Assembly: GCA_017464685.1 (NCBI GenBank)
Contig: JAFTYO010000052.1
Span: forward strand, 1,251 to 65,250
Length of the DNA stretch: 64,000 nt
Direction: 5' to 3'
Origin: Alphaproteobacteria bacterium
Lineage (GTDB): Bacteria > Pseudomonadota > Alphaproteobacteria > RF32 > CAG-239
Made by a program: the position numbers and the translations under genes. This document shows, piece by piece, positions 4,656-58,431 of this stretch (the first letter of the stretch is position 1; each line of letters begins with the position of its first letter). Under the pieces are notes generated by a model. The model did no database searches. It had not been told where the DNA came from and saw only the letters and a list, made by a program, of their open reading frames with translations.

Positions 4656-5972
4656 TCATACTTGACCGAGCAACCAATCAAGCACATTTAATCGTTTAAT
4701 ACCGTTATTTTCACCAGAGCCATAATCCATCGAAAGTATGAATTTCGGGTAATTATCCTCTATAGCTTCAAGCGGAGCAAGTTCACGTTCCAATGTCTCA
4801 TTTCCCAGCACATTCAAAGCAACTTGATAATATTCAACAATTCCACCACTTTTTTTAGCGATAAAATCTACTTCAATCAGTTTACTTCCACTATGAATTT
4901 TACCAACAGAAACCTCATAACCACGACGTATTAGTTCAAGATATACCACATTTTCAAGAATATGACCTGCATCCATATCCTTCATACCGATTAAAGCAGT
5001 TCTCAGTCCAATATCAGCAACATAATACTTCGAGTTGCTGTCAAGGTATTGTTTGCCTTTAATATCATATCGTTTGCACTCATACATCAAGAAACTATCA
5101 AGCAGACCTTCAAGAATTTTATCTATCGTCGGTACTGAAATTTTATGACCACCAGAACCAAGACCTTTTTCAATATTACGAATAGATGTCTCATTTCCGA
5201 TATTATCAAACATATATTTTACCACCGCATCAAGCTTATTAGTATCTGCGATATTAAAACGTTTAACTATATCCTTTTGAATTGTGTTCAAATAAACAGT
5301 ATCTAGCAAATAATCGCTTATTAATTGCTTATCATAAACTAAGTTTAAGGTCTGAGGAAAACCGCTTTCAGTTATATAATGAGAATAAACAGCCATTGGA
5401 TTATGCAAGCTTTCTATCTCATTTTTAGTTCTAGCATAAACGCCCGCAAACATTGAATATGCAGAAAAATATTCCTTAAAAGAAAATGGTTGCATTTTAA
5501 TTTCAATATATCTACCACCTAACGAATTAGCCAAATCACTGGAAAACATATAGGCATTTGAACCTGTCAAATACAAGTCAACATTATTTTGCAACCTTAA
5601 AGCATTAGCGACTTTATCCCAATCTCTCAGCAACTGTATTTCATCAATAAAGACATAATTCATCTTTTGGGGTTTGAGAATTGATAAAACATAGTCCAAC
5701 AACTTATTATAGCCGACTAAAAAGTTTTCCTTATCATAAGAAAGTCCGATTTTGTTAGTCTGTACCAAATCTTCCAGATTTATATTTACAATCTGGCTAT
5801 CGTCAGCTTGTTTATTAGTGATTAAATCAAGTTGATAAAGGTAAAACAATTTGGATTTACCGCAACGTCTTACCCCTGTGATTATTTTTATTAAATCACT
5901 TTGCCCTTGCCACTTTTTAAGTTGCTCTATATATTGTGGTCTGCCAACTATTCTTTCAGATGCACTTTGCAT
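4656..5972 (-). CDS. AAA+ ATPase of the AAA_14/DUF4143 (COG1373) type
   Basis: 438-aa ORF with Walker A GVRRCGKSKL and Walker B-like VFIDEIQLLRDW. The C-terminal region resembles DUF4143 proteins as I remember them. Confidence 0.65.
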   Translation of the reverse strand: MQSASERIVGRPQYIEQLKKWQGQSDLIKIITGVRRCGKSKLFYLYQLDLITNKQADDSQIVNINLEDLVQTNKIGLSYDKENFLVGYNKLLDYVLSILKPQKMNYVFIDEIQLLRDWDKVANALRLQNNVDLYLTGSNAYMFSSDLANSLGGRYIEIKMQPFSFKEYFSAYSMFAGVYARTKNEIESLHNPMAVYSHYITESGFPQTLNLVYDKQLISDYLLDTVYLNTIQKDIVKRFNIADTNKLDAVVKYMFDNIGNETSIRNIEKGLGSGGHKISVPTIDKILEGLLDSFLMYECKRYDIKGKQYLDSNSKYYVADIGLRTALIGMKDMDAGHILENVVYLELIRRGYEVSVGKIHSGSKLIEVDFIAKKSGGIVEYYQVALNVLGNETLERELAPLEAIEDNYPKFILSMDYGSGENNGIKRLNVLDWLLGQV

Positions 5973-27536: not shown

Positions 27537-27613
27537 TGGCGCGCTCGGCGGGGTTCGAACTCACAACCTTCTGATCCGTAGTCAGATGCTCTATCCAATT
27601 GAGCTACGAGCGC
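27537..27613 (-). tRNA. tRNA-Arg (anticodon ACG), CCA encoded
   Basis: The reverse complement folds by hand. Acceptor GCGCTCG/CGAGCGC, anticodon stem TCTGA/TCAGA with loop CT-ACG-GA, T loop TTCGAAC (one A-C mismatch in the T stem). A minus-strand terminator hairpin (AAACGAC...GTCGTTT plus a T run) follows at 27492-27531. Confidence 0.85.
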
Positions 27614-34330: not shown

Positions 34331-34529
34331 CAAAAACACCCAACCTGAGTTGGGTGTAAAAAGTTTTTTAAGCCATCTGACCGTTTATTACATTTCATAT
34401 CGAACCGCTTGGACAAGGTGGGTGCCATATAATCAGACCACGATCTGAACAGTGACAGCTCCCGATAATATAAACGTTGGCTCGGATAGACCATGCGGAA
34501 TAATACGTATCAGACAGCCTGCCTTTTAT
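34331..34529 (-). ncRNA. Candidate small non-coding RNA, possibly 6S RNA (ssrS)-like
   Basis: Lies between the convergent genes ychF and rplQ. A minus-strand promoter TTGATT(34564-34559)-17 nt-TACTAT(34541-34536) is present. The terminator ACACCCAAC-N4-GTTGGGTGT (34336-34357) has its U-run on the minus strand. A long closing stem pairs GCUGUCUGA..CGU.UUAUU with AAUAA.ACG.UCAGAUGGC. Internal motifs GAGCC.A...UUU.AUA and CACCUUG..CCAAG.GGUUC.A resemble E. coli 6S RNA as I remember it. Confidence 0.4.
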
Positions 34530-34723: not shown

Positions 34724-35167
34724 TTACTCAGCAGAATTATTTTCAGTTTCAGCTGCGGCAGCTTTTTCAGCAGCAACACGGGCTAAGTCTTTAGCACCTT
34801 TTGCATTTACATCACGGTCAACCAATTCAATGATTGCCATAGGAGCACAGTCACCATAACGGAAACCGGCTTTCAATACACGAGTATAACCGCCGTTACG
34901 CTCTTTGTAACGTTCTGCCAAAGTAGAGAAAAGTTTAGAAACAACTTCTTTATCTCTTAAAAATGACAAAGCTAATCTGCGACTGTTTAAGTCACCTTTT
35001 TTAGCATAAGAAATCATATTATCGGCAAAAGTTCTCAATTCTTTAGCACGAGGCAATGTAATGTTGATTTGTTCGTGTGTTAATAAAGCATTTGTTAAGT
35101 TAGCAAACAAAGCTCTGCGCTGGCTTTTCGGCATATTAAACTTTTTATGTTTATCACCATGTCTCAT
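34724..35167 (-). CDS. rplQ: 50S ribosomal protein L17
   Basis: Motif MRHGDKHKKFNMPKSQRRALFANL. A terminator (AAAAAACGAGTCGCTCAAGCGATTCGTTTTTT on the minus strand) follows at about 34667-34698. Confidence 0.95.
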   Translation of the reverse strand: MRHGDKHKKFNMPKSQRRALFANLTNALLTHEQINITLPRAKELRTFADNMISYAKKGDLNSRRLALSFLRDKEVVSKLFSTLAERYKERNGGYTRVLKAGFRYGDCAPMAIIELVDRDVNAKGAKDLARVAAEKAAAAETENNSAE

Positions 35168-35389: not shown

Positions 35390-35638
35390 CTATTCATTAA
35401 AATCTTCAAATTTTATCACAAATTTTTTATTAAAAACAAATCCGAGTTGGCTTAAAAAATTTGTATCAAAATAGCCTTTACCTACTTTTATATGCCATAC
35501 TCTACGAGGTTTGATTGCCATTATTCGGGCAAATTCTTCTTCGGTGATATTTTTTTCTTGCAATAATTTTTCTATTTCCAAAGAAAATAGTTTTAAAGAT
35601 TTATTTTTTACATTTTTTACGGTTAAACTTTGATTCAT
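35390..35638 (-). CDS. Small putative HTH DNA-binding protein (82 aa)
   Basis: The internal ATG 35638 has an AGGAG RBS. The segment LQEKNITEEEFARIMAIKPRRVWHIKVGK looks like a helix-turn-helix. An intrinsic terminator follows at about 35350-35388. Confidence 0.5.
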   Translation of the reverse strand: MNQSLTVKNVKNKSLKLFSLEIEKLLQEKNITEEEFARIMAIKPRRVWHIKVGKGYFDTNFLSQLGFVFNKKFVIKFEDFNE

Positions 35639-35824
35639 TTTAGACTCCTGTTTTATTTTGGTTACAAAAAACCGCCTTGAAAAAATCCAAAGCGGAGGAG
35701 CCGAAAAACTGTCTATCACAGTCAGGTTTATTCGCGCTATTGCCTTATTTCACCCACTCCCCCAAAAAGGAGTTTAATTGATAGATGATGTCTTGTGGAC
35801 ACCGCCGTCATTTGACGACAGTGT
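35639..35824 (-). promoter_or_regulatory. Structured 5' leader with an intrinsic terminator immediately upstream of the HTH gene (attenuator- or riboswitch-like)
   Basis: Putative promoter TTGATT(35855-35850)-17-TAATAT(35832-35827). A 5' hairpin at 35799-35824 is fully paired only on the minus strand (two G-U pairs). The terminator is CCGCUUUG-N8-CAAGGCGG plus U6 (35666-35695), only 28 nt before the ATG. A 16-bp palindrome ATCGTTATATAACGAT (35880-35895) lies just upstream of the -35. Confidence 0.4.
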
Positions 35825-36059: not shown

Positions 36060-36893
36060 TTACAATCTAACCCTATTAATCGTAATTTGTTCATCAATAT
36101 AAATATCAAGTGCAAAAACATCTTCTGTTAAATGCTCATTTCCTACGGTTGCAGATATTGTTTCCCCTATTTTTTGCATAAAATCCCCTGAATTAACTAC
36201 ACTATCGTGAATATGTCCGTGCAATGTCAAAAGCGGTTTTTTGCTTTCTATAATTTTGCGAACAGCTCGACTTCCGATATGTCTTAATTTTCCTGCTTTA
36301 TCTTTTGTTAAATCACAAACGGTTTCAAAAGGTGGAGCATGAGTAATTAATATTAGTTTATTTGATGGAATATCTTTACATAATTTATCCAAATCATCTT
36401 CAATGCTGGATTTTAAATAATTTTGCAATATGTCATAAGATTTATCAAAATCAATTTTTCCGACAGTTAAAACATCTTCTCTTAAATCTTTTTCGGTGTC
36501 GGATGTAAGGTCTCTTTTTTCCCAATCTTTCCAAATAAAGGGAGTATGAGGAACATATGAGTATCCGATAAAACAGTATTCGTTGAAATAATACGGGGTA
36601 TCAATTATTTTATAATTACACATTGTTTCGTTTTCTTTTAAGAAATTTAAATTAGTGCAATAGTCATCATTACCTAAAATCAACAATGTTTTAGCATTAC
36701 TCGTTTTTGTTAATGGGAAAAGTATATTTTGAAAAAAATCTTTTTGTGAAGTGGGATTTCTTTTTTCTTTATCTTTTGGTGATAAATCACCACCCAAAAC
36801 AAGCAATTCAATATGTTGCTCTTTTACATACTGAAAGACTTTGTTATATTGAAACTCATTTCCGTGTAAATCAGCGGTAAATAAAAATCTCAT
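36060..36893 (-). CDS. Metallophosphoesterase (calcineurin-like)
   Basis: Motifs FTADLHGN, LVLGGDLSP, ILGNDDY, ITHAPP and LHGHIHD. Confidence 0.8.
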   Translation of the reverse strand: MRFLFTADLHGNEFQYNKVFQYVKEQHIELLVLGGDLSPKDKEKRNPTSQKDFFQNILFPLTKTSNAKTLLILGNDDYCTNLNFLKENETMCNYKIIDTPYYFNEYCFIGYSYVPHTPFIWKDWEKRDLTSDTEKDLREDVLTVGKIDFDKSYDILQNYLKSSIEDDLDKLCKDIPSNKLILITHAPPFETVCDLTKDKAGKLRHIGSRAVRKIIESKKPLLTLHGHIHDSVVNSGDFMQKIGETISATVGNEHLTEDVFALDIYIDEQITINRVRL

Positions 36894-37037
36894 AAATTCT
36901 CACTTAAAACAAATTATAACAGTATTTATATTATATAACCTTAAAAATAAATCAAGTGATTTTTGATATACGATTCCATAATCAACTTGCATATGATTTG
37001 ATTTTATGATAAAATCATAATCATAGTGGAGAAGTTT

Positions 37038-38222
37038 ATGGCAAATTCAAATCAGGATATAATCGGAAAATATGTTGAGCAGATACAAAACAATGTTCAA
37101 CAAGCCATTTCTTTGCAAAAAACTTTTTCAGAAACTGCCAAAATTGATGAAAATGGCGATTGGATATTTACTGCCCGACAGTCAAATGATGTTATATCTG
37201 AGGATATATCAATTCGTATCAGTAAAGATAAAATTTCTTTATTTGCCCCTGAAGATGAACTTAAAAACAAATCTGCTGAAATGGCTCATATAACTGTGAT
37301 AGAACAAGCTCAAAAATATAAAACTTCTTCAAAAACCCCATTTGAATATTATAAAAGCCTAAATGATGAGGATAGGCAACAAATTGATGAAGCGGCTGAT
37401 TTATATAGCAAGAATACGCCTGACCTACAATTTGAAGCAACCAAACAACTTTTACTTTCTAATGCTGTAATGCCCAGAATTGTTAATCGGGCTTTACAAC
37501 AATCTGCCACCACAGCCAAGCAAAAAGAATTATTAGCAAATTCTCAGATTAATAGCAAATCAGATAACGGATATTGTACAAAATCTTTATTTATTCCTTT
37601 GTATGAATTTTGTGACCGATATGGCGGTTTTGATTGGTTACCTAAAGATGCCGAAACAGCTTCTCACCCACAAACAATGATTAATCATATCAAAGAATAT
37701 AACAAAGATATGGTAAGTGATGTGGTAAACCTTAATTCGCAAATTGTAAATTATGACCCCAGAGCAATTGTTTTAGTTGACCAAGGAAAATCACATATGC
37801 ATGCCATGATGTATAACGGTATAAACCAAACTACATCAAAACCGCAATATATCGGGTTTAATTCTAATGATTTAAATAGAGGTCTTAGCGATAAAAGAGT
37901 TGGTGTTATAATTGATTTACCTAAATTGATACAAAATGATGATAAAATTAATGCCGGAAAGCAAAATCAATCAAATTTATCTACACATGAGGATACGCAA
38001 CAACAAATCAATATAGCGGAAAAGACCTCAATTCCATCGGAAAAATTATCAAGAGGGGAAAAAGCTGAATATGTTAATTTGCAAATCAATCGTGTTCGTA
38101 AAAAATTGCAAGAAAGAAATAAAACAACAACTATTGATGATAAACCTCATAAAACACTTCCGCAAAATATAGATAAAAATATTTTAAAATTATATCAAGA
38201 TAGTAGAGCTAAAAGATTTTAG
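37038..38222 (+). CDS. Hypothetical protein (394 aa)
   Basis: ATG 37038 has GGAGAA 5 nt upstream (the track starts at GTG 37026). No signal peptide. See findings for a weak Cys/His hydrolase idea. Confidence 0.55.
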   Translation: MANSNQDIIGKYVEQIQNNVQQAISLQKTFSETAKIDENGDWIFTARQSNDVISEDISIRISKDKISLFAPEDELKNKSAEMAHITVIEQAQKYKTSSKTPFEYYKSLNDEDRQQIDEAADLYSKNTPDLQFEATKQLLLSNAVMPRIVNRALQQSATTAKQKELLANSQINSKSDNGYCTKSLFIPLYEFCDRYGGFDWLPKDAETASHPQTMINHIKEYNKDMVSDVVNLNSQIVNYDPRAIVLVDQGKSHMHAMMYNGINQTTSKPQYIGFNSNDLNRGLSDKRVGVIIDLPKLIQNDDKINAGKQNQSNLSTHEDTQQQINIAEKTSIPSEKLSRGEKAEYVNLQINRVRKKLQERNKTTTIDDKPHKTLPQNIDKNILKLYQDSRAKRF

Positions 38223-38632
38223 TTGTTTGTCTTTTTAACACTCTTATAGGTAGCCCATAACAGAGCACAGAACAACAAACCCAAATGTACAAAAGAAAAA
38301 TATTCAAGATAGAGAGGTATGTTTGAAGCATATTCTTCATTATTATACATAGCATTGGCGGATTTATACCCATATATTACCCCCGGAACAAAGGTAAATA
38401 TGAGGTTGATATATTCTACCATACCAAAAGCCAACAGATAATTGCTTGTTTTAGGAAATTTTGTTTGCAGTTTTTCTATAAATACAAACTTCTTTTTAAT
38501 GCATAAGGCAATCAACAAAACGATAAATAAGAAAAACAAAACCATAGATAGCGTTTCAAAAAAAGAAACAAGCAGGGAAGTAATAAAATAAACACCTCCA
38601 AACATCAAAATTTGCTGTAAAAAAGACTTCAT
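38219..38632 (-). CDS. Small 4-TM membrane protein, paralogue of 38667-39053
   Basis: 137 aa, MKSFLQQILMFGGVYFITSLL... It shares its N-terminus and RBS context (CAGGAGGTAATTTAATG) with the upstream paralogue. Confidence 0.6.
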   Translation of the reverse strand: MKSFLQQILMFGGVYFITSLLVSFFETLSMVLFFLFIVLLIALCIKKKFVFIEKLQTKFPKTSNYLLAFGMVEYINLIFTFVPGVIYGYKSANAMYNNEEYASNIPLYLEYFSFVHLGLLFCALLWATYKSVKKTNN

Positions 38633-38666
38633 TAAATTACCTCCTGCTGTTTTTAAAAATTAATCA

Positions 38667-39053
38667 TTATTTTCGCTTTACTGTTCGAACTAAAATTATC
38701 AATAAAGAGATAAACACAGATACAATAAAACCAAAAGAAATCGCCCCATCAATTAAAGCCATATAGTCAGAAATATCAGATAGTAGCGGAATAACGATTA
38801 TATTTAATAAGAAGGAAATTAAAACATACCCACCCATAACATTTAGCAACAAAGTTAAGTTAGGGTATTTAATTTGAAAATTTGTTACTCGTGACAATTT
38901 ACTCATTATACATAACAAAACGATTATTATCAGAAAAATGGGAAATATAACAGCACAAATTTGCTGAAGAATATAACTAATCATACTCAAAACTGAGGAG
39001 ATAATAAAAAATCCTCCACATAATGTCAAAATTTGCAACATTTTAGATTTCAT
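38667..39053 (-). CDS. Small 4-TM membrane protein, paralogue of 38219-38632
   Basis: 128 aa, MKSKMLQILTLCGGFFIISSVL... This is a tandem duplicate with an identical RBS region. Confidence 0.6.
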   Translation of the reverse strand: MKSKMLQILTLCGGFFIISSVLSMISYILQQICAVIFPIFLIIIVLLCIMSKLSRVTNFQIKYPNLTLLLNVMGGYVLISFLLNIIVIPLLSDISDYMALIDGAISFGFIVSVFISLLIILVRTVKRK

Positions 39054-39075: not shown

Positions 39076-39324
39076 TTATATTTTATTATCTTTTATCATA
39101 TCAGAAGTTATACAACCGTGTTCTTTATCCCACTTGGCACAATCATGACGACAAATTTTTTGTTCATCATCCCAAACCCCATGTTCTTCACTTATACAAT
39201 ATCCGGCATCATCAAATACCAAATATAGAAAATAAGCAGTAACACCAAAGCCAATAAAAGCAAAAATATTCCAAAAGACAAGAAATATTTTCCAAATGAT
39301 TTTCTTAAAATTAATATTTATCAT
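39076..39324 (-). CDS. Small membrane-anchored Cys-containing protein (82 aa)
   Basis: N-terminus MININFKKIIWKIFLVFWNIFAFIGFGV (TM), then a 4-Cys domain. It overlaps the SAA-like gene stop by 14 nt. The N-terminus resembles that of 39882-40145 (MINFKKI...). Confidence 0.55.
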   Translation of the reverse strand: MININFKKIIWKIFLVFWNIFAFIGFGVTAYFLYLVFDDAGYCISEEHGVWDDEQKICRHDCAKWDKEHGCITSDMIKDNKI

Positions 39325-39691
39325 TTATTCCTCGCACACGGTATAATTTACAAGCATCTTTAGCATTCCTGTATACACCACTTTTAGCTCTTTGTCTACC
39401 GGTTTTGTTAACCGCTTTGTCATGAGCTTTATCTTTTAGAGCAGCTTTTTTAGATAATCCTTTCCATATCTGATTATAATAATAATCAAAATTTTCTTTT
39501 GCATTACCTAATTTTTTAGCAACTCTTTCACCTGTAACGCCTCTTGAAGTTGCTTCATAATTTGCTTTACAGTGGAAATAATCATCTCCTTTAACTGTAT
39601 TATCTCTTTTCATATCCCAATAGTTTCTATTTAGGTCTTGAACAGCTAAAATAGTTTCTTTCAATTTATTTAATTTACTTTTTCTAGGCAT
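39311..39691 (-). CDS. Serum amyloid A (SAA) family protein homologue
   Basis: 126 aa. WDMKRDNTVKGDDYFHCKANYEATSRGVTGERVAKKLGNAKEN...DKAVNKTGRQR...RGINDKY aligns by eye with human SAA1 [42 protein letters not shown]...DQAANEWGRSG...AGLPEKY, with 10/16 identical across [16 protein letters not shown]. It has an AT-rich bacterial RBS and promoter context. Confidence 0.7.
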   Translation of the reverse strand: MPRKSKLNKLKETILAVQDLNRNYWDMKRDNTVKGDDYFHCKANYEATSRGVTGERVAKKLGNAKENFDYYYNQIWKGLSKKAALKDKAHDKAVNKTGRQRAKSGVYRNAKDACKLYRVRGINDKY

Positions 39692-39862
39692 ATTTTTTTC
39701 CTTTCTTATTAAAAAGTTAACACAATGATAGCGCTATCATTATATTATATAGGGTAGCAATATATTAAAATCAATATATTTAAATGAAAAATATTATATT
39801 AATTTTACAACCATGTGATAACGGGCAAAAAAAGAGTGCTTTAACACTTTAAAGCACTCTTT
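39689..39862 (-). repeat. Copy A of a roughly 172-bp duplicated expression cassette (terminator, promoter, 18-bp palindromic operator, RBS)
   Basis: About 90% identical to 40480-40651, with a perfectly identical 66-nt core (39746-39811 = 40536-40601). It contains the palindrome AATGATAGCGCTATCATT (39724-39741), a minus-strand TTGATT-17-TATATA promoter just upstream of it, and a 12-bp-stem terminator at 39833-39860. Confidence 0.85.
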
Positions 39863-39881
39863 TTATCAGATTGAATTTTGT

Positions 39882-40145
39882 TTACTCCAAAATAAAAATG
39901 TAGCTTAATATCCAAGCAACAAAGTATAACATAAAATAGAAAACATATCGATTAGATATTTTATCTTTTATTTTCCCCTGATAAAAACAAGGAAACAAAA
40001 TATAAATCAGGACATATATTACACCAAACAAACCCATAAAATCGGTGTAATCAGCTTTCAATAAAATTGCTGTTAAAAAACTTAAAATCGGCGGAACTAA
40101 ATATATTCCTGCAACAAAAAATCCTATTTTCTTAAAATTAATCAT
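39882..40145 (-). CDS. Small multi-TM membrane protein (87 aa)
   Basis: Start moved to ATG 40145 (GAGAGG RBS): MINFKKIGFFVAGIYLVPPILSF... There are three hydrophobic segments. Confidence 0.55.
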   Translation of the reverse strand: MINFKKIGFFVAGIYLVPPILSFLTAILLKADYTDFMGLFGVIYVLIYILFPCFYQGKIKDKISNRYVFYFMLYFVAWILSYIFILE

Positions 40146-40227
40146 CAAAACCTCTCTATTAGTTATTATCAAAAAAAACAAGCAAAAGCAATATAATTAT
40201 TGCCTTTGCCGTTTTTTTATTTTTACA

Positions 40228-40482
40228 TCAATATGTTCCTGTTTTTCTGTATTTCCTCCTTACATTGTTACCAACAGATTTACAATAATCCAAACTATTA
40301 TGTGGATTCTGCAAACAGTTGATGGTTTCTCTTTCTCCAACATTTAAATCAGAGATACCGAACAATCTACGATTCATACGTTCATAGGGCTCAATTACTT
40401 TTTCAGCCACTTTGTTAGCCACTCTGTTTTTGGTTCTTTTAAGGGCATATTTTGCTACCTTAGTCACTATTTTATTTACCAT
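40228..40482 (-). CDS. Small basic protein (84 aa), hypothetical
   Basis: ATG 40482 occupies the same position in repeat copy B as the SAA-like ATG does in copy A. Sequence MVNKIVTKVAKYALKRTKNRVANKV...NCLQNPHNSLDYCKSVGNNVRRKYRKTGTY. The track's longer ORF would start inside the operator palindrome. Confidence 0.55.
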   Translation of the reverse strand: MVNKIVTKVAKYALKRTKNRVANKVAEKVIEPYERMNRRLFGISDLNVGERETINCLQNPHNSLDYCKSVGNNVRRKYRKTGTY

Positions 40483-40651
40483 ATTTTTTTCCTTTCTTAT
40501 TAAAATTAACAAAAATGATAGCGCTATCATTATAATATATAGGGTAGCAATATATTAAAATCAATATATTTAAATGAAAAATATTATATTAATTTTACAA
40601 CTATATGATAATAAGCAAAAAAAAGAGTGCTTTTATTTTAAAAGCACTCTC
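40480..40651 (-). repeat. Copy B of the duplicated expression cassette
   Basis: Palindrome AATGATAGCGCTATCATT at 40514-40531. The terminator AGAGTGCTTTT-N5-AAAAGCACTCT (40624-40650) also ends gyrB. Confidence 0.85.
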
Positions 40652-40675: not shown

Positions 40676-43117
<2,442 letters not shown>

Positions 43118-54203: not shown

Positions 54204-55538
54204 TCACCAACACATAAAATATTTTAATTTATATAAATTTTGGCGCATAATAATATTTTGACGAATAGATGTAACTAAATTAAACTTAGAGCAACTATCA
54301 TTTACAAGAAAACACTTCTTAAAATAAGTTTCACAAAGAATGCTCCATATTTTACATCTTAATTTTTGCGTCATATAATGTATCATAATTACAAAATAAG
54401 AATTAATACTTGCCATAAACTTTCCGCAAATTTCAGAAAGATATTTTCTGTTCTCGGCAAATAAACTTTTCAAAGCTTCCATATTATTTTTATCCTGATT
54501 GCTTTTTAAAAAGTTTTTAACACACAGATAAAGTTTATGTTTAACTCTACGCCCTATATAAATGCAATTTTGCTTTATAAAGGCTCCTAAAAATCCAACT
54601 CCGTGTTTATAATGCTGTAAATAAACTTTATTAGGATGCAAATCAGCATAAAGAACTTTTTTCAAAAACAAAGCAATTTTTTTATGCACAAATTTTAAAA
54701 AATCTTTATCCTGATGCACTATTATAAAATCATCAACATATCGAGCATAATGGGTAATACCTAAATCTTGAGTTATAAACTTATCTAATTTATCTAAGTA
54801 GAAATTAGCAAAAATTTGCGAAGTCAGATTACCAATCGGTAGCCCTTTATGTTTTGCTGACCAAAACAATGTTTTATGACAAGGCAAACCATTCCAATCC
54901 GATATTTTACCTTTGATTCGACAATTATTTTCAGGATTATTGAAAATAATCTGTTTAATCAACTTTAATATAATCTCTTTATCCGAAGCTTTATATTTTT
55001 CCTCTAAAAACTGATACAACATTTTATAGAGAACATTTTTATCAATATTCATAAAAAAGGAACGAATATCCATTTTTAAGACATAGCAATCTTTAGAATA
55101 ATTATCTGAACATTCCTTAATTTTCTGCGCCACACTTTGCACAGCTTTAAGAGTTCCTTTTCCTTTGCGGCAACTGTAGCTATCGTCAATAAACAGTTCT
55201 TCAAAAAGATGATTGATTTTGTTAATAATAAAATGATGTATCACTCTATCCCGAAAATTTGCAGCAAAAATTTCACGTTGAACAGGTTCTTTTACGACAA
55301 AAGCAACCGAGCGACCTATTTTATAACTACCGTTATTAATTTCGCGCCACATTTTAATCAACTCGCTTTCAAACCTGATTTCAAACTTTATGGCACTGGC
55401 AGTCCTACGCTTATTTTTACGACAATCAAAATAAGCTTCGAACAATTCCTCAAGCGCAATTTGCGGCTTCAGGTTTTCAGCTTGGTCAAAAAGTTCTAAC
55501 TGCTTTGCCTTTCTTTTTCGACGATAAATATTACGCAC
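54204..55538 (-). CDS. DGR-type reverse transcriptase
   Basis: 444 aa with a GTG start and AAGGA RBS. Motifs REIFAANFRDRVIHHF, LPIGNLTSQIFANFYLDKLDKF (the I/LGxxxSQ signature of DGR RTs) and the YxDD box YARYVDDFIIV. The TR lies 45 nt upstream. Confidence 0.9.
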   Translation of the reverse strand: MRNIYRRKRKAKQLELFDQAENLKPQIALEELFEAYFDCRKNKRRTASAIKFEIRFESELIKMWREINNGSYKIGRSVAFVVKEPVQREIFAANFRDRVIHHFIINKINHLFEELFIDDSYSCRKGKGTLKAVQSVAQKIKECSDNYSKDCYVLKMDIRSFFMNIDKNVLYKMLYQFLEEKYKASDKEIILKLIKQIIFNNPENNCRIKGKISDWNGLPCHKTLFWSAKHKGLPIGNLTSQIFANFYLDKLDKFITQDLGITHYARYVDDFIIVHQDKDFLKFVHKKIALFLKKVLYADLHPNKVYLQHYKHGVGFLGAFIKQNCIYIGRRVKHKLYLCVKNFLKSNQDKNNMEALKSLFAENRKYLSEICGKFMASINSYFVIMIHYMTQKLRCKIWSILCETYFKKCFLVNDSCSKFNLVTSIRQNIIMRQNLYKLKYFMCW

Positions 55539-58354: not shown

Positions 58355-58431
58355 GTCGGCGTAGCTCATCAGGATAGAGCAACAGTTTCCTAAACTGTGG
58401 GTAGTGGGTTCGAGTCCCGCCGCTGACGCCA
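58355..58431 (+). tRNA. tRNA-Arg (anticodon CCT), CCA encoded
   Basis: Hand fold. Acceptor GTCGGCG/CGCTGAC (one G-T pair), D arm GCTC..GAGC, anticodon stem ACAGT/ACTGT with loop TT-CCT-AA, T arm GTGGG-TTCGAGT-CCCGC. Confidence 0.85.

Follow-up and report, generated by a model that had tools for sequence, protein, structure and literature searches.

Two overlapping genes lie on the minus strand between gyrB and rplQ in the chromosome of an Alphaproteobacteria bacterium, an uncultured gut Alphaproteobacterium and gut or rumen commensal. One encodes a 126-aa protein belonging to the serum amyloid A (SAA) family, and the other an 82-aa membrane protein whose reading frame opens before that of the first has closed. 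Both belong to a stretch of 64,000 nt from contig JAFTYO010000052.1 (assembly GCA_017464685.1), which we call the window; positions follow window numbering, and those of most features are collected in Table 1. An initial annotation of this DNA, made from its letters, had taken the 126-aa product for a homologue of vertebrate SAA, suggested inter-domain transfer, and foreseen lipid or retinol binding. Here we describe the pair, its relatives and its likely role as a toxin-immunity cassette—an analysis that supports the initial interpretation in part.

An SAA-fold protein and its membrane-anchored partner

Preceded by a bacterial ribosome-binding site (RBS; AAGAAAGGA-N7-ATG), the SAA gene starts with ATG and encodes a product of about 14 kDa, just as the initial annotation had read it. 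The Pfam search that had been named beforehand as the check on homology gave a significant match to PF00277 (SAA; 72 bits where the gathering score is 30.8, E 5.8e-20) that spans the entire model (positions 3-102 of 102), and phmmer found eight SAA chains in the PDB (E 5e-9 to 3e-7). An AlphaFold2 model built from an alignment of 42 homologues (mean predicted local distance difference test, pLDDT, 91.6; predicted TM-score, pTM, 0.87) has four long helices (residues 6-29, 37-48, 52-75 and 81-104) and a short fifth (110-113). Searched with Foldseek against the PDB, it gave seven matches with a probability of 1.00, all of them crystal structures of mouse SAA3 or human SAA1, including 4q5g, 6py0, 6pxz, 4ip8 and 4ip9 (target-normalised TM-score 0.83-0.89, root-mean-square deviation 1.9-2.8 A). 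Beyond the SAA structures every PDB match had E>3, and the viral set BFVD returned no match at E<1. Neither outcome that the initial annotation had set as refuting, a lack of significant PF00277 matches or an unrelated fold, came about, and the 126-aa protein is confirmed as a true SAA homologue, in sequence and in fold.

Invariant among the 42 homologues, and predicted to be catalytic, are H40 in helix 2, E66 and D69 in helix 3, and D91, N95, G98 and R99 in helix 4, where N95-K-T-G98-R99 belongs to the motif sNxxGR (V94-N95-K-T-G98-R99 in the window protein). H40 and E66 align with H37 and E63 of human SAA1. Likeness to the vertebrate SAA1 and SAA3 proteins (4ip8, 4q5g, 6py0) extends from the fold, with deviations of about 2 A, to the motifs YFH, A(K/R)EN, D..(A)N..GR and the C-terminal (D/E)KY; the last three had been picked out correctly by eye (AKEN/AREN, D.A.N..GR, DKY/EKY), although a 16-residue stretch reckoned 10/16 identical to human SAA1 counts 9/16 on alignment. 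In contrast to the window protein, vertebrate SAA lacks cysteines, carries a signal peptide and has no immunity partner. The window protein, for its part, has a longer region between helices 3 and 4 (residues 70-90), a pair of cysteines—C41 invariant, C114 kept in at least 90% of homologues—and a very basic composition (pI 9.95, net charge +17). It is soluble and of low hydrophobicity (grand average of hydropathy -1.17); a hydropathy scan of the full protein found no hydrophobic segment, signal peptide or transmembrane (TM) segment, the highest 15-residue Kyte-Doolittle mean being -0.02, in agreement with the signal peptide absence noted earlier.

The partner gene starts inside the final codons of the SAA gene (…INDKY* or …INEKY* overlapping MINI… or MKNI…), and the resulting 14-nt overlap, seen at 39311-39324 as the initial annotation had it, is common to 27 of 40 distinct SAA/partner pairs. 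Its product consists of a lysine-rich N-terminal tail (12 residues, charge +3), a TM helix of 25 residues and an ectodomain of acidic character (pI 4.67, net charge -6) in which C43, C58, C62 and C71, spaced as C-x14-CRxDC-x8-C, are invariant in 42 sequences. The AlphaFold2 model (pLDDT 86.7) comprises helices 6-37 and 39-45 and strands 50-52, 57-59, 64-66 and 70-72; Foldseek matched it to no solved structure in the PDB. By the positive-inside rule—tail +3, ectodomain -6—the cysteine-rich domain should lie outside the membrane, and the same rule together with the invariant cysteines in both proteins suggests that the pair would meet in an extracytoplasmic compartment. Neither gene matched anything in PHROGs, PADLOC or NCBIfam.

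For neighbour counts, the open reading frames (ORFs) of 69 fetched loci and of the window were clustered by BLAST. The partner family stands beside SAA genes in 55 loci, far above any other neighbour family; this count supersedes a regular-expression count that was too low (41 of 58 ORFs). A profile search with partner sequences drawn from these loci retrieved 190 clusters, none of which has a Pfam domain and all of whose named members are 'hypothetical'; the profile was required, since a word-indexed search with the single partner sequence returned 3 relatives only. Variants of the partner have three TM segments or an extra cysteine-rich C-terminal extension, and some loci carry two partner genes in tandem.

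Family membership and genomic distribution

The initial annotation had expected bacterial SAA proteins to be rare and, by implication, new; they are neither. Bacterial SAA, or prok-SAA, was first noted by Zamocky & Ferianc 2023 (Int J Biol Macromol) and is described by Burroughs, Nicastro & Aravind (eLife 2025, PMC12419801), a paper from whose text, source data and supplements we draw in part. There, animal SAA is placed in the Lipocone superfamily, prok-SAA is defined as a family within it, of the SAA-Wnt (SAW) clade, and regarded as the progenitor of metazoan SAA, and a census lists 195 prok-SAA loci. The traits given for prok-SAA are a four-helix core with a fifth helix, a conserved His in helix 2, in helix 3 a conserved Glu and, close to its end, an acidic residue, and sNxxGR in helix 4, which includes an active-site position (PMC12419801). 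In the window protein the predicted Lipocone catalytic positions—His40, Glu66 and the Asn95 of sNxxGR—are all intact. The published source data give the partner, Imm-SAA, the architectures 'TM+[TM+TM+]Imm-SAA' and 'PGBD(f), TM+Imm-SAA', and report the gene upstream of it as Prok-SAA 75 times, RHS 17 times and MuF 14 times; MuF, a phage head protein, is fused to prok-SAA 19 times (PMC12419801). With its TM anchor, helix, four strands and four conserved cysteines, the window partner corresponds to the published immunity type (iii), 'TM+Imm-SAA'.

Judged on sequences and models, then, the window pair fits the published descriptions feature for feature: PF00277, the four-plus-one helix fold, sNxxGR, the His and Glu sites and the four-cysteine partner. 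A published table of the family (Prok-SAA.tsv) contains MBQ8751046.1, whose domain is identical to that of P0002, a 75%-identical orthologue with the same cassette. Because of these descriptions and this entry, the family, the subfamily and the toxin-immunity interpretation are to be regarded as already published, and the window cassette as an ordinary member of a family catalogued in 2023-2025 that will not surprise a specialist. One difference is of emphasis: the publications, as far as drawn on here, stress toxin tips of the T6SS (type VI secretion system)/RHS and MuF kinds and PGBD fusions, whereas the window copy is a bare 126-aa domain. A duplicated palindrome-bearing regulatory unit, a strain-variable island and copies within phage structural modules go beyond the published description and are new; the gene arrays and partner variants also go beyond it. 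The searched parts of PMC12419801 and its supplements do not mention the 14-nt entanglement, the duplication of the palindrome promoter or island variation at strain level, and the searched main text mentions phage Min-Wnt and MuF-fused prok-SAA, but no MuF-less copies within phage structural modules.

An exhaustive search of representative sequences, clustered at 50% identity, gave 625 SAA-matching clusters with E<=1e-3, of which 140 reach E<=1e-10. Among the best 150 clusters the domain almost always forms the C-terminus of a longer protein, as in RHS/YD-shell proteins (P0189, P0214) and in fusions to PG_binding_1 (P0081, P0105). A 75%-identical homologue (L001) has the same pair and the same 14-nt overlap in a wholly different neighbourhood; elsewhere the pair stands beside rpsF-rpsR-rplI and rpoD (L006/L007) or beside McrBC (L008), and flanking genes differ at every chromosomal locus compared. 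SAA-domain genes also form arrays of up to seven (L041, L061), and L015, L041, L061 and L063 have arrays made up of SAA and Imm paralogues. Several loci (L041, L042, L043, L061, L062, L063; L061 and L062 are Pseudodesulfovibrio metagenome-assembled genomes, MAGs) have three to seven SAA-domain genes of varied length in tandem, interspersed with small ORFs, which is the cassette-array organisation of polymorphic toxins.

Other copies are in phages. A 57%-identical homologue (P0020), found in 81 assembly blocks, sits with an Imm gene between the large terminase and head genes, and in related loci (L022, L026) a portal gene follows the pair. A group of podovirus-like contigs, two of them from IMG/VR, have genes for a PGBD-like plus SAA protein and a short two-cysteine TM partner, flanked by those for tail tubular proteins A/B on one side and for the tail fibre on the other. 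The large terminase gene lies downstream, and the layout of PGBD-SAA and TM protein resembles an endolysin-holin lysis cassette. A scan of IMG/VR itself gave three distant matches, and the telling phage contexts come from metagenome contigs. In the 57%-identical homologue, as it stands in the phage or prophage loci L003/L004/L005, the SAA domain is cut off by an in-frame TAA from a 36-aa N-terminal peptide (…IDEFGIDHSNFSLRDELEY…); P0053 and others have CAA at that codon and are fused, and many chromosomal homologues show the IDEFGIDHSNFSLRDELEY motif again in their N-terminal extensions.

In gut and rumen Alphaproteobacteria the pair recurs at unrelated chromosomal sites, dozens of them, and it is present in their phage genomes as well. 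The varying flanks, an island content that differs between strains, the copies in phage modules, and a GC content about 10 points under that of gyrB point to a mobile cassette. As to composition, the initial annotation had called the gene AT-rich like its neighbours, which holds for the surrounding island, whose ORFs have a GC of 0.26-0.30, but not for gyrB (0.39-0.45). Its dismissal of contamination was borne out by a 99%-identical gene in two independent faecal MAGs of the same species (L009, L010), with the flank common to L010. A eukaryotic or contaminant contig was considered and rejected on the dnaN-recF…gyrB and ribosomal protein context and on the presence of the cassette in three independent assemblies.

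The toxin-immunity reading and its rivals

We consider it likely that the SAA gene and its overlapping partner constitute a toxin-immunity cassette, mobile and of two genes, that is carried by gut Alphaproteobacteria and by their phages; that the protein belongs to the prok-SAA family is held with much higher confidence. The 126-aa protein would be an enzyme that works on the periplasmic side and cleaves phosphate-linked lipid head groups, and the membrane-tethered ectodomain of Imm-SAA would bind and block it at the membrane surface, shielding the producer and its kin. Expression would be controlled by a repressor on the 18-bp palindrome that lies over the promoter, and export might proceed by cargo loading into a contractile or phage-like particle, by release on lysis, or through a dedicated exporter encoded elsewhere. 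The toxin context is supported by the RHS proteins with a C-terminal SAA domain, the PG_binding_1 fusions and the multi-gene arrays, and extracytoplasmic action by the conserved cysteine pair of the toxin and the outward cysteine-rich domain of the partner; the complementarity of a basic toxin and an acidic ectodomain is only suggestive of binding. The apolipoprotein-like role foreseen by the initial annotation overlooks the partner gene, which is conserved and translationally coupled and so speaks for a toxin-immunity pair.

Among known systems, the T6SS cargo pairs Tse1-Tsi1 and Tae-Tai, small effectors that act in the target periplasm, are likewise composed of a small leaderless effector and an adjacent periplasm-exposed immunity protein; they differ in having unrelated domains, and there are no T6SS genes in the window or among recurrent neighbours. 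The mechanistic model adopted here is that of TelC of Streptococcus intermedius, a characterised Lipocone toxin that cleaves lipid II (cited in PMC12419801): a soluble protein that attacks a lipid-linked wall precursor on the outer side of the cytoplasmic membrane and is neutralised by the extracytoplasmic, membrane-associated immunity protein TipC encoded by the adjacent gene. By this analogy the likeliest substrates of the window protein would be cell-wall precursors linked to undecaprenyl-(pyro)phosphate, for example lipid II. TelC nevertheless belongs to another Lipocone clade and is a Gram-positive LXG substrate of a type VII secretion system (T7SS) of about 550 aa; TipC is unrelated to Imm-SAA, and the window pair has no recognisable secretion signal. 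Polymorphic toxins as defined by Zhang/Aravind 2012 have an N-terminal trafficking module, which the RHS relatives P0189 and P0214 possess and the window protein lacks. An adjacent immunity gene and cassette arrays are present, in the form of the Imm gene, the arrays of SAA and Imm paralogues described above, and the orphan membrane ORFs and second module of the window itself. With its bare toxin domain, the window gene is therefore part of an 'allied' standalone toxin-immunity pair and not a polymorphic toxin proper.

Several points weigh against the toxin-immunity reading. The enzymatic mechanism of prok-SAA is a published prediction, not a demonstration (PMC12419801). The window protein has neither a signal peptide nor a trafficking domain and no secretion genes adjoin it, which makes delivery the weak side of the model; no secretion machinery was found in the window, and a Pfam scan of 130 neighbour-cluster representatives showed no recurrent secretion family among the best 25 of 155 families, beyond which rare T6SS or MuF neighbours may occur. 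Instead of inhibiting the toxin, the partner might in principle serve as a membrane receptor, an activator or a holin-like protein, and the C41-C114 disulfide is putative. Moreover, vertebrate SAA keeps the same polar residues and yet binds lipids and retinol, so their conservation alone is no proof of catalysis.

Vertebrate SAA is an HDL-associated (high-density lipoprotein), retinol- and lipid-binding acute-phase protein, and a gut or rumen commensal might have captured such a gene recently from its animal host and reused it as a host-mimicking lipid- or retinol-binding or immunomodulatory protein. The shared fold and motifs, and the retinol and lipid binding of vertebrate SAA (titles of PDB 6py0 and related entries), would suit this idea; in our judgement it is scarcely credible. 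In the phylogeny that the initial annotation had called for—a neighbour-joining tree of 134 domain sequences over about 120 columns, including four vertebrate SAAs checked against the PDB and no invertebrate ones—vertebrate SAAs share just 31-33% identity with the window protein, take ranks 123-133 of 134 in closeness to it, and group with the branch holding the RHS-repeat toxin P0189 (51% identical to human SAA1), whereas the clade of the window protein contains at least 53 clusters and zero vertebrate members. The tree is crude and only indicative, yet on these sequences it rules out that the commensal captured the gene recently from a host, and it is in line with the scenario of the literature, a transfer of SAA from bacteria to Metazoa before the cnidarian split. 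The hundreds of bacterial SAA clusters, the conserved immunity partner, the cysteine pair missing from vertebrate SAA, the absence of any signal peptide that would direct the protein to a host and the opposite direction inferred in the literature tell the same way, and on the sequences compared the recent-capture idea is largely refuted. What survives of the proposed inter-domain transfer is that the family spans bacteria and animals, with a transfer at some time; its direction from animal to bacterium and its recency do not. Assignment of the window protein to Met-SAA was also considered and rejected, given the absent signal peptide, the C41/C114 pair, the identity of 31-33% and the position outside the vertebrate branch. 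The enzyme might instead be directed at the cell itself: a cytoplasmic or membrane-peripheral protein remodelling lipid carriers or phospholipid head groups of its own cell as a housekeeping or stress module, with the TM protein as its membrane anchor or regulator, or, in a variant, an intracellular abortive-infection effector. A leaderless protein with its own regulated promoter and operator, sited among housekeeping genes, is compatible with this, and PMC12419801 proposes intracellular roles for some leaderless standalone Lipocones (cyanobacterial prok-TelC, phage Min-Wnt). We nonetheless think it very unlikely: the distribution is patchy and variable between strains, copies occur in polymorphic multi-gene arrays, RHS and PGBD fusions of this domain exist, PADLOC gave no match, and a cytoplasmic enzyme needs a cytoplasmic surface, whereas the cysteine-rich ectodomain of the partner faces the periplasm and its N-terminal tail has 12 residues.

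A further, unlikely reading is that of a phage-derived entry or lysis module, in which the SAA enzyme would attack a lipid carrier or the cell wall at infection (virion-delivered) or at lysis (endolysin-like), the partner would be a superinfection-exclusion factor or a holin/antiholin-like protein, and the window cassette would be a domesticated or orphaned remnant. The P0020 type, with the same partner, lies between large terminase and portal or head genes; the podovirus-like copies are placed between tail tubular proteins A/B and fibre; PGBD with a catalytic domain and a small TM protein is a lysis-cassette layout; the published fusions are to MuF, a phage head protein; and a leaderless state would fit holin-dependent or virion-mediated export. 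Set against this, no phage genes occur in the window within some 30 kb of the SAA gene in either direction and most chromosomal loci likewise have none, RHS-tip versions followed by Imm-SAA make the partner an immunity protein in non-phage systems, phages of the L003 type already have a conventional cell-wall hydrolase, and PHROGs and BFVD hold no SAA-like family. A bolder version, which we regard as decidedly improbable, makes the leaderless pair at root a phage weapon and shield: tailed phages of gut Alphaproteobacteria would deploy SAA enzymes, as proteins without MuF fusion or as PGBD-SAA proteins among the tail genes, to breach the layer of lipid carriers and cell wall at entry or lysis, and Imm-SAA would serve as superinfection exclusion. 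If that were true, chromosomal cassettes would persist with the immunity gene defending against phages and the toxin gene making the cassette addictive, and the family would represent a new class of phage envelope-attacking enzyme and a new principle of anti-phage defence, the two sharing their fold with an acute-phase protein of humans.

As a toxin-immunity cassette, the window pair is near minimal, with a 126-aa toxin, an 82-aa immunity protein, no accessory domains and a high-confidence model for each. Such a compact pair is convenient for a first experimental test of SAA-fold proteins as lipid-head-group phosphoesterases and for an inhibitor-bound structure—relevant also to human SAA, a major inflammation marker and amyloid precursor of the same fold. 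The module is frequently exchanged among gut and rumen Alphaproteobacteria and their phages, which bears on competition within the gut microbiota.

Regulatory duplication and the island around the pair

The window is origin-proximal housekeeping chromosome (dnaN, recF, gyrB, htpG, a penicillin-binding protein gene, rsmH, obg, rplQ and 6S RNA), and the flanking genes gyrB and rplQ had been named correctly. Within it, the SAA gene occupies an island some 3.7 kb long, made up of family-less ORFs and bounded by a metallophosphoesterase gene and gyrB (Table 1).

Table 1. Positions of features in the window and, where a locus handle is given, in compared loci
Feature	Position	Strand	Basis or remark
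prok-SAA standalone domain protein, predicted toxin	39311..39691	-	PF00277, AlphaFold2 model, Foldseek, invariant residues
Imm-SAA-type partner, predicted cognate immunity protein, 82 aa	39076..39324	-	co-occurrence across loci, profile search, AlphaFold2 model, published description
5' regulatory unit of SAA-Imm operon	39692..39864	-	sequence, repeat I9 and palindrome analysis
Hairpin terminator of preceding unit, 16-bp perfect stem	39829-39864	-	
-35/-10-like boxes, TTAATA-18-TATAAT	39768-39739	-	
Perfect 18-bp palindrome AATGATAGCGCTATCATT, adjoining -10 box	39724-39741		
Second copy of regulatory unit: terminator after gyrB, promoter-like boxes, same palindrome (40514-40531), RBS	40483..40651	-	repeat D1
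Direct repeat D1	39694-39833 and 40484-40623		87% over 140 nt
Module A	39882..40482	-	repeat alignment; present in L010, absent from L009
ORF84, basic, two Cys, start MVNKIV…	40228-40482	-	module A; start corrected by repeat alignment
Terminator-like hairpin after ORF84	40210-40181	-	
ORF87, about three TM segments, start MINFKKI…	39882-40145	-	module A; repeat D4
Strain-variable accessory part of island	36971..39053		comparison with L009 and L010
398-aa orphan ORF	37026-38222	+	absent from L009 and L010
Two paralogous multi-TM ORFs, 31% identical	38219-38632 and 38667-39053	-	absent from L009 and L010
Metallophosphoesterase gene	36060-36893		
gyrB	40676-43117		
rplQ	34724-35167		
Helix-turn-helix (HTH) ORF	35390-35719		
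6S RNA gene	34366-34523	-	just downstream of rplQ region
444-aa ORF with reverse transcriptase domain	54204-55538	-	RVT_1, E 4.8e-18
LonB/LonC-like protease, 811 aa	9911-12346	-	AAA_32 + Lon_C
ATPase	4656-5972	-	AAA_14 + DUF4143
Three tRNA genes	1384-1457, 27540-27613, 58355-58428		
Imm-SAA variants	L001 6793-7176; L013 5371-5760; L015 5334-5714; L044-L052 (132-aa forms)		
Podovirus-like SAA loci	L059 4294-5113; L067 5494-6084; L068 3925-4750; also L057, L058, L060		
Phage or prophage SAA gene with in-frame TAA	L003/L004/L005 4887-5372		

The 'operator' of the initial annotation corresponds to the perfect 18-bp palindrome beside the -10-like TATAAT box. It is part of a unit of about 175 bp, running from the hairpin through the ATG, that is present in two copies—one before SAA-Imm and one before ORF84 of module A—which are near-identical on pairwise alignment and have the same RBS, AAGAAAGGA. 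The window holds two copies of the palindrome, where 0.04 are expected, and among the fetched loci it is present only in the SAA upstream region of the same-species MAGs L009 and L010, the latter holding both palindromes. A scan for the sigma-70 consensus was uninformative in such AT-rich DNA (18 sites against 18 expected), and the promoter assignment is therefore based on the duplicated unit. The HTH ORF near rplQ was tried as the repressor of the palindrome and set aside, its region not being conserved in L010, which keeps both palindromes.

Module A may be a second toxin-immunity-like pair. Alignment of the repeats moved the start of its first ORF, read before as 'ORF100', to the ATG at 40482, giving 84 aa; the start of ORF87 has 17 identical nt in common with that of Imm-SAA. 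The module A ORFs matched nothing in Pfam, PHROGs, PADLOC or NCBIfam, and neither did the other unassigned ORFs of the island; weak HTH matches of a neighbouring 109-aa ORF were the sole exception among the PHROGs, PADLOC and NCBIfam results. Comparison with the same-species MAGs shows how variable the island is: L010 lacks the 398-aa ORF and both multi-TM paralogues, L009 lacks these and module A, and SAA-Imm is the constant core of all three. The multi-TM paralogues may be orphan immunity-like membrane proteins, and a 137-aa ORF of the island has a homologue 3' of the SAA/Imm array in L015. In the 398-aa protein a Cys…His pattern (GYCTKS … HMHAMMY) recalls, by eye, a papain-like peptidase. 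An Rfam scan of the cassette region found no structured RNA.

Farther away, the window carries the 6S RNA gene, the three tRNA genes and the RVT_1 ORF of Table 1. The last may be a retron, a diversity-generating retroelement (DGR) or an orphan reverse transcriptase; near it, Rfam found no group II intron RNA or other RNA family. The window also encodes the LonB/LonC-like protease and the ATPase with DUF4143, and both architectures, AAA_32 + Lon_C and AAA_14 + DUF4143, are at times found in defence islands.

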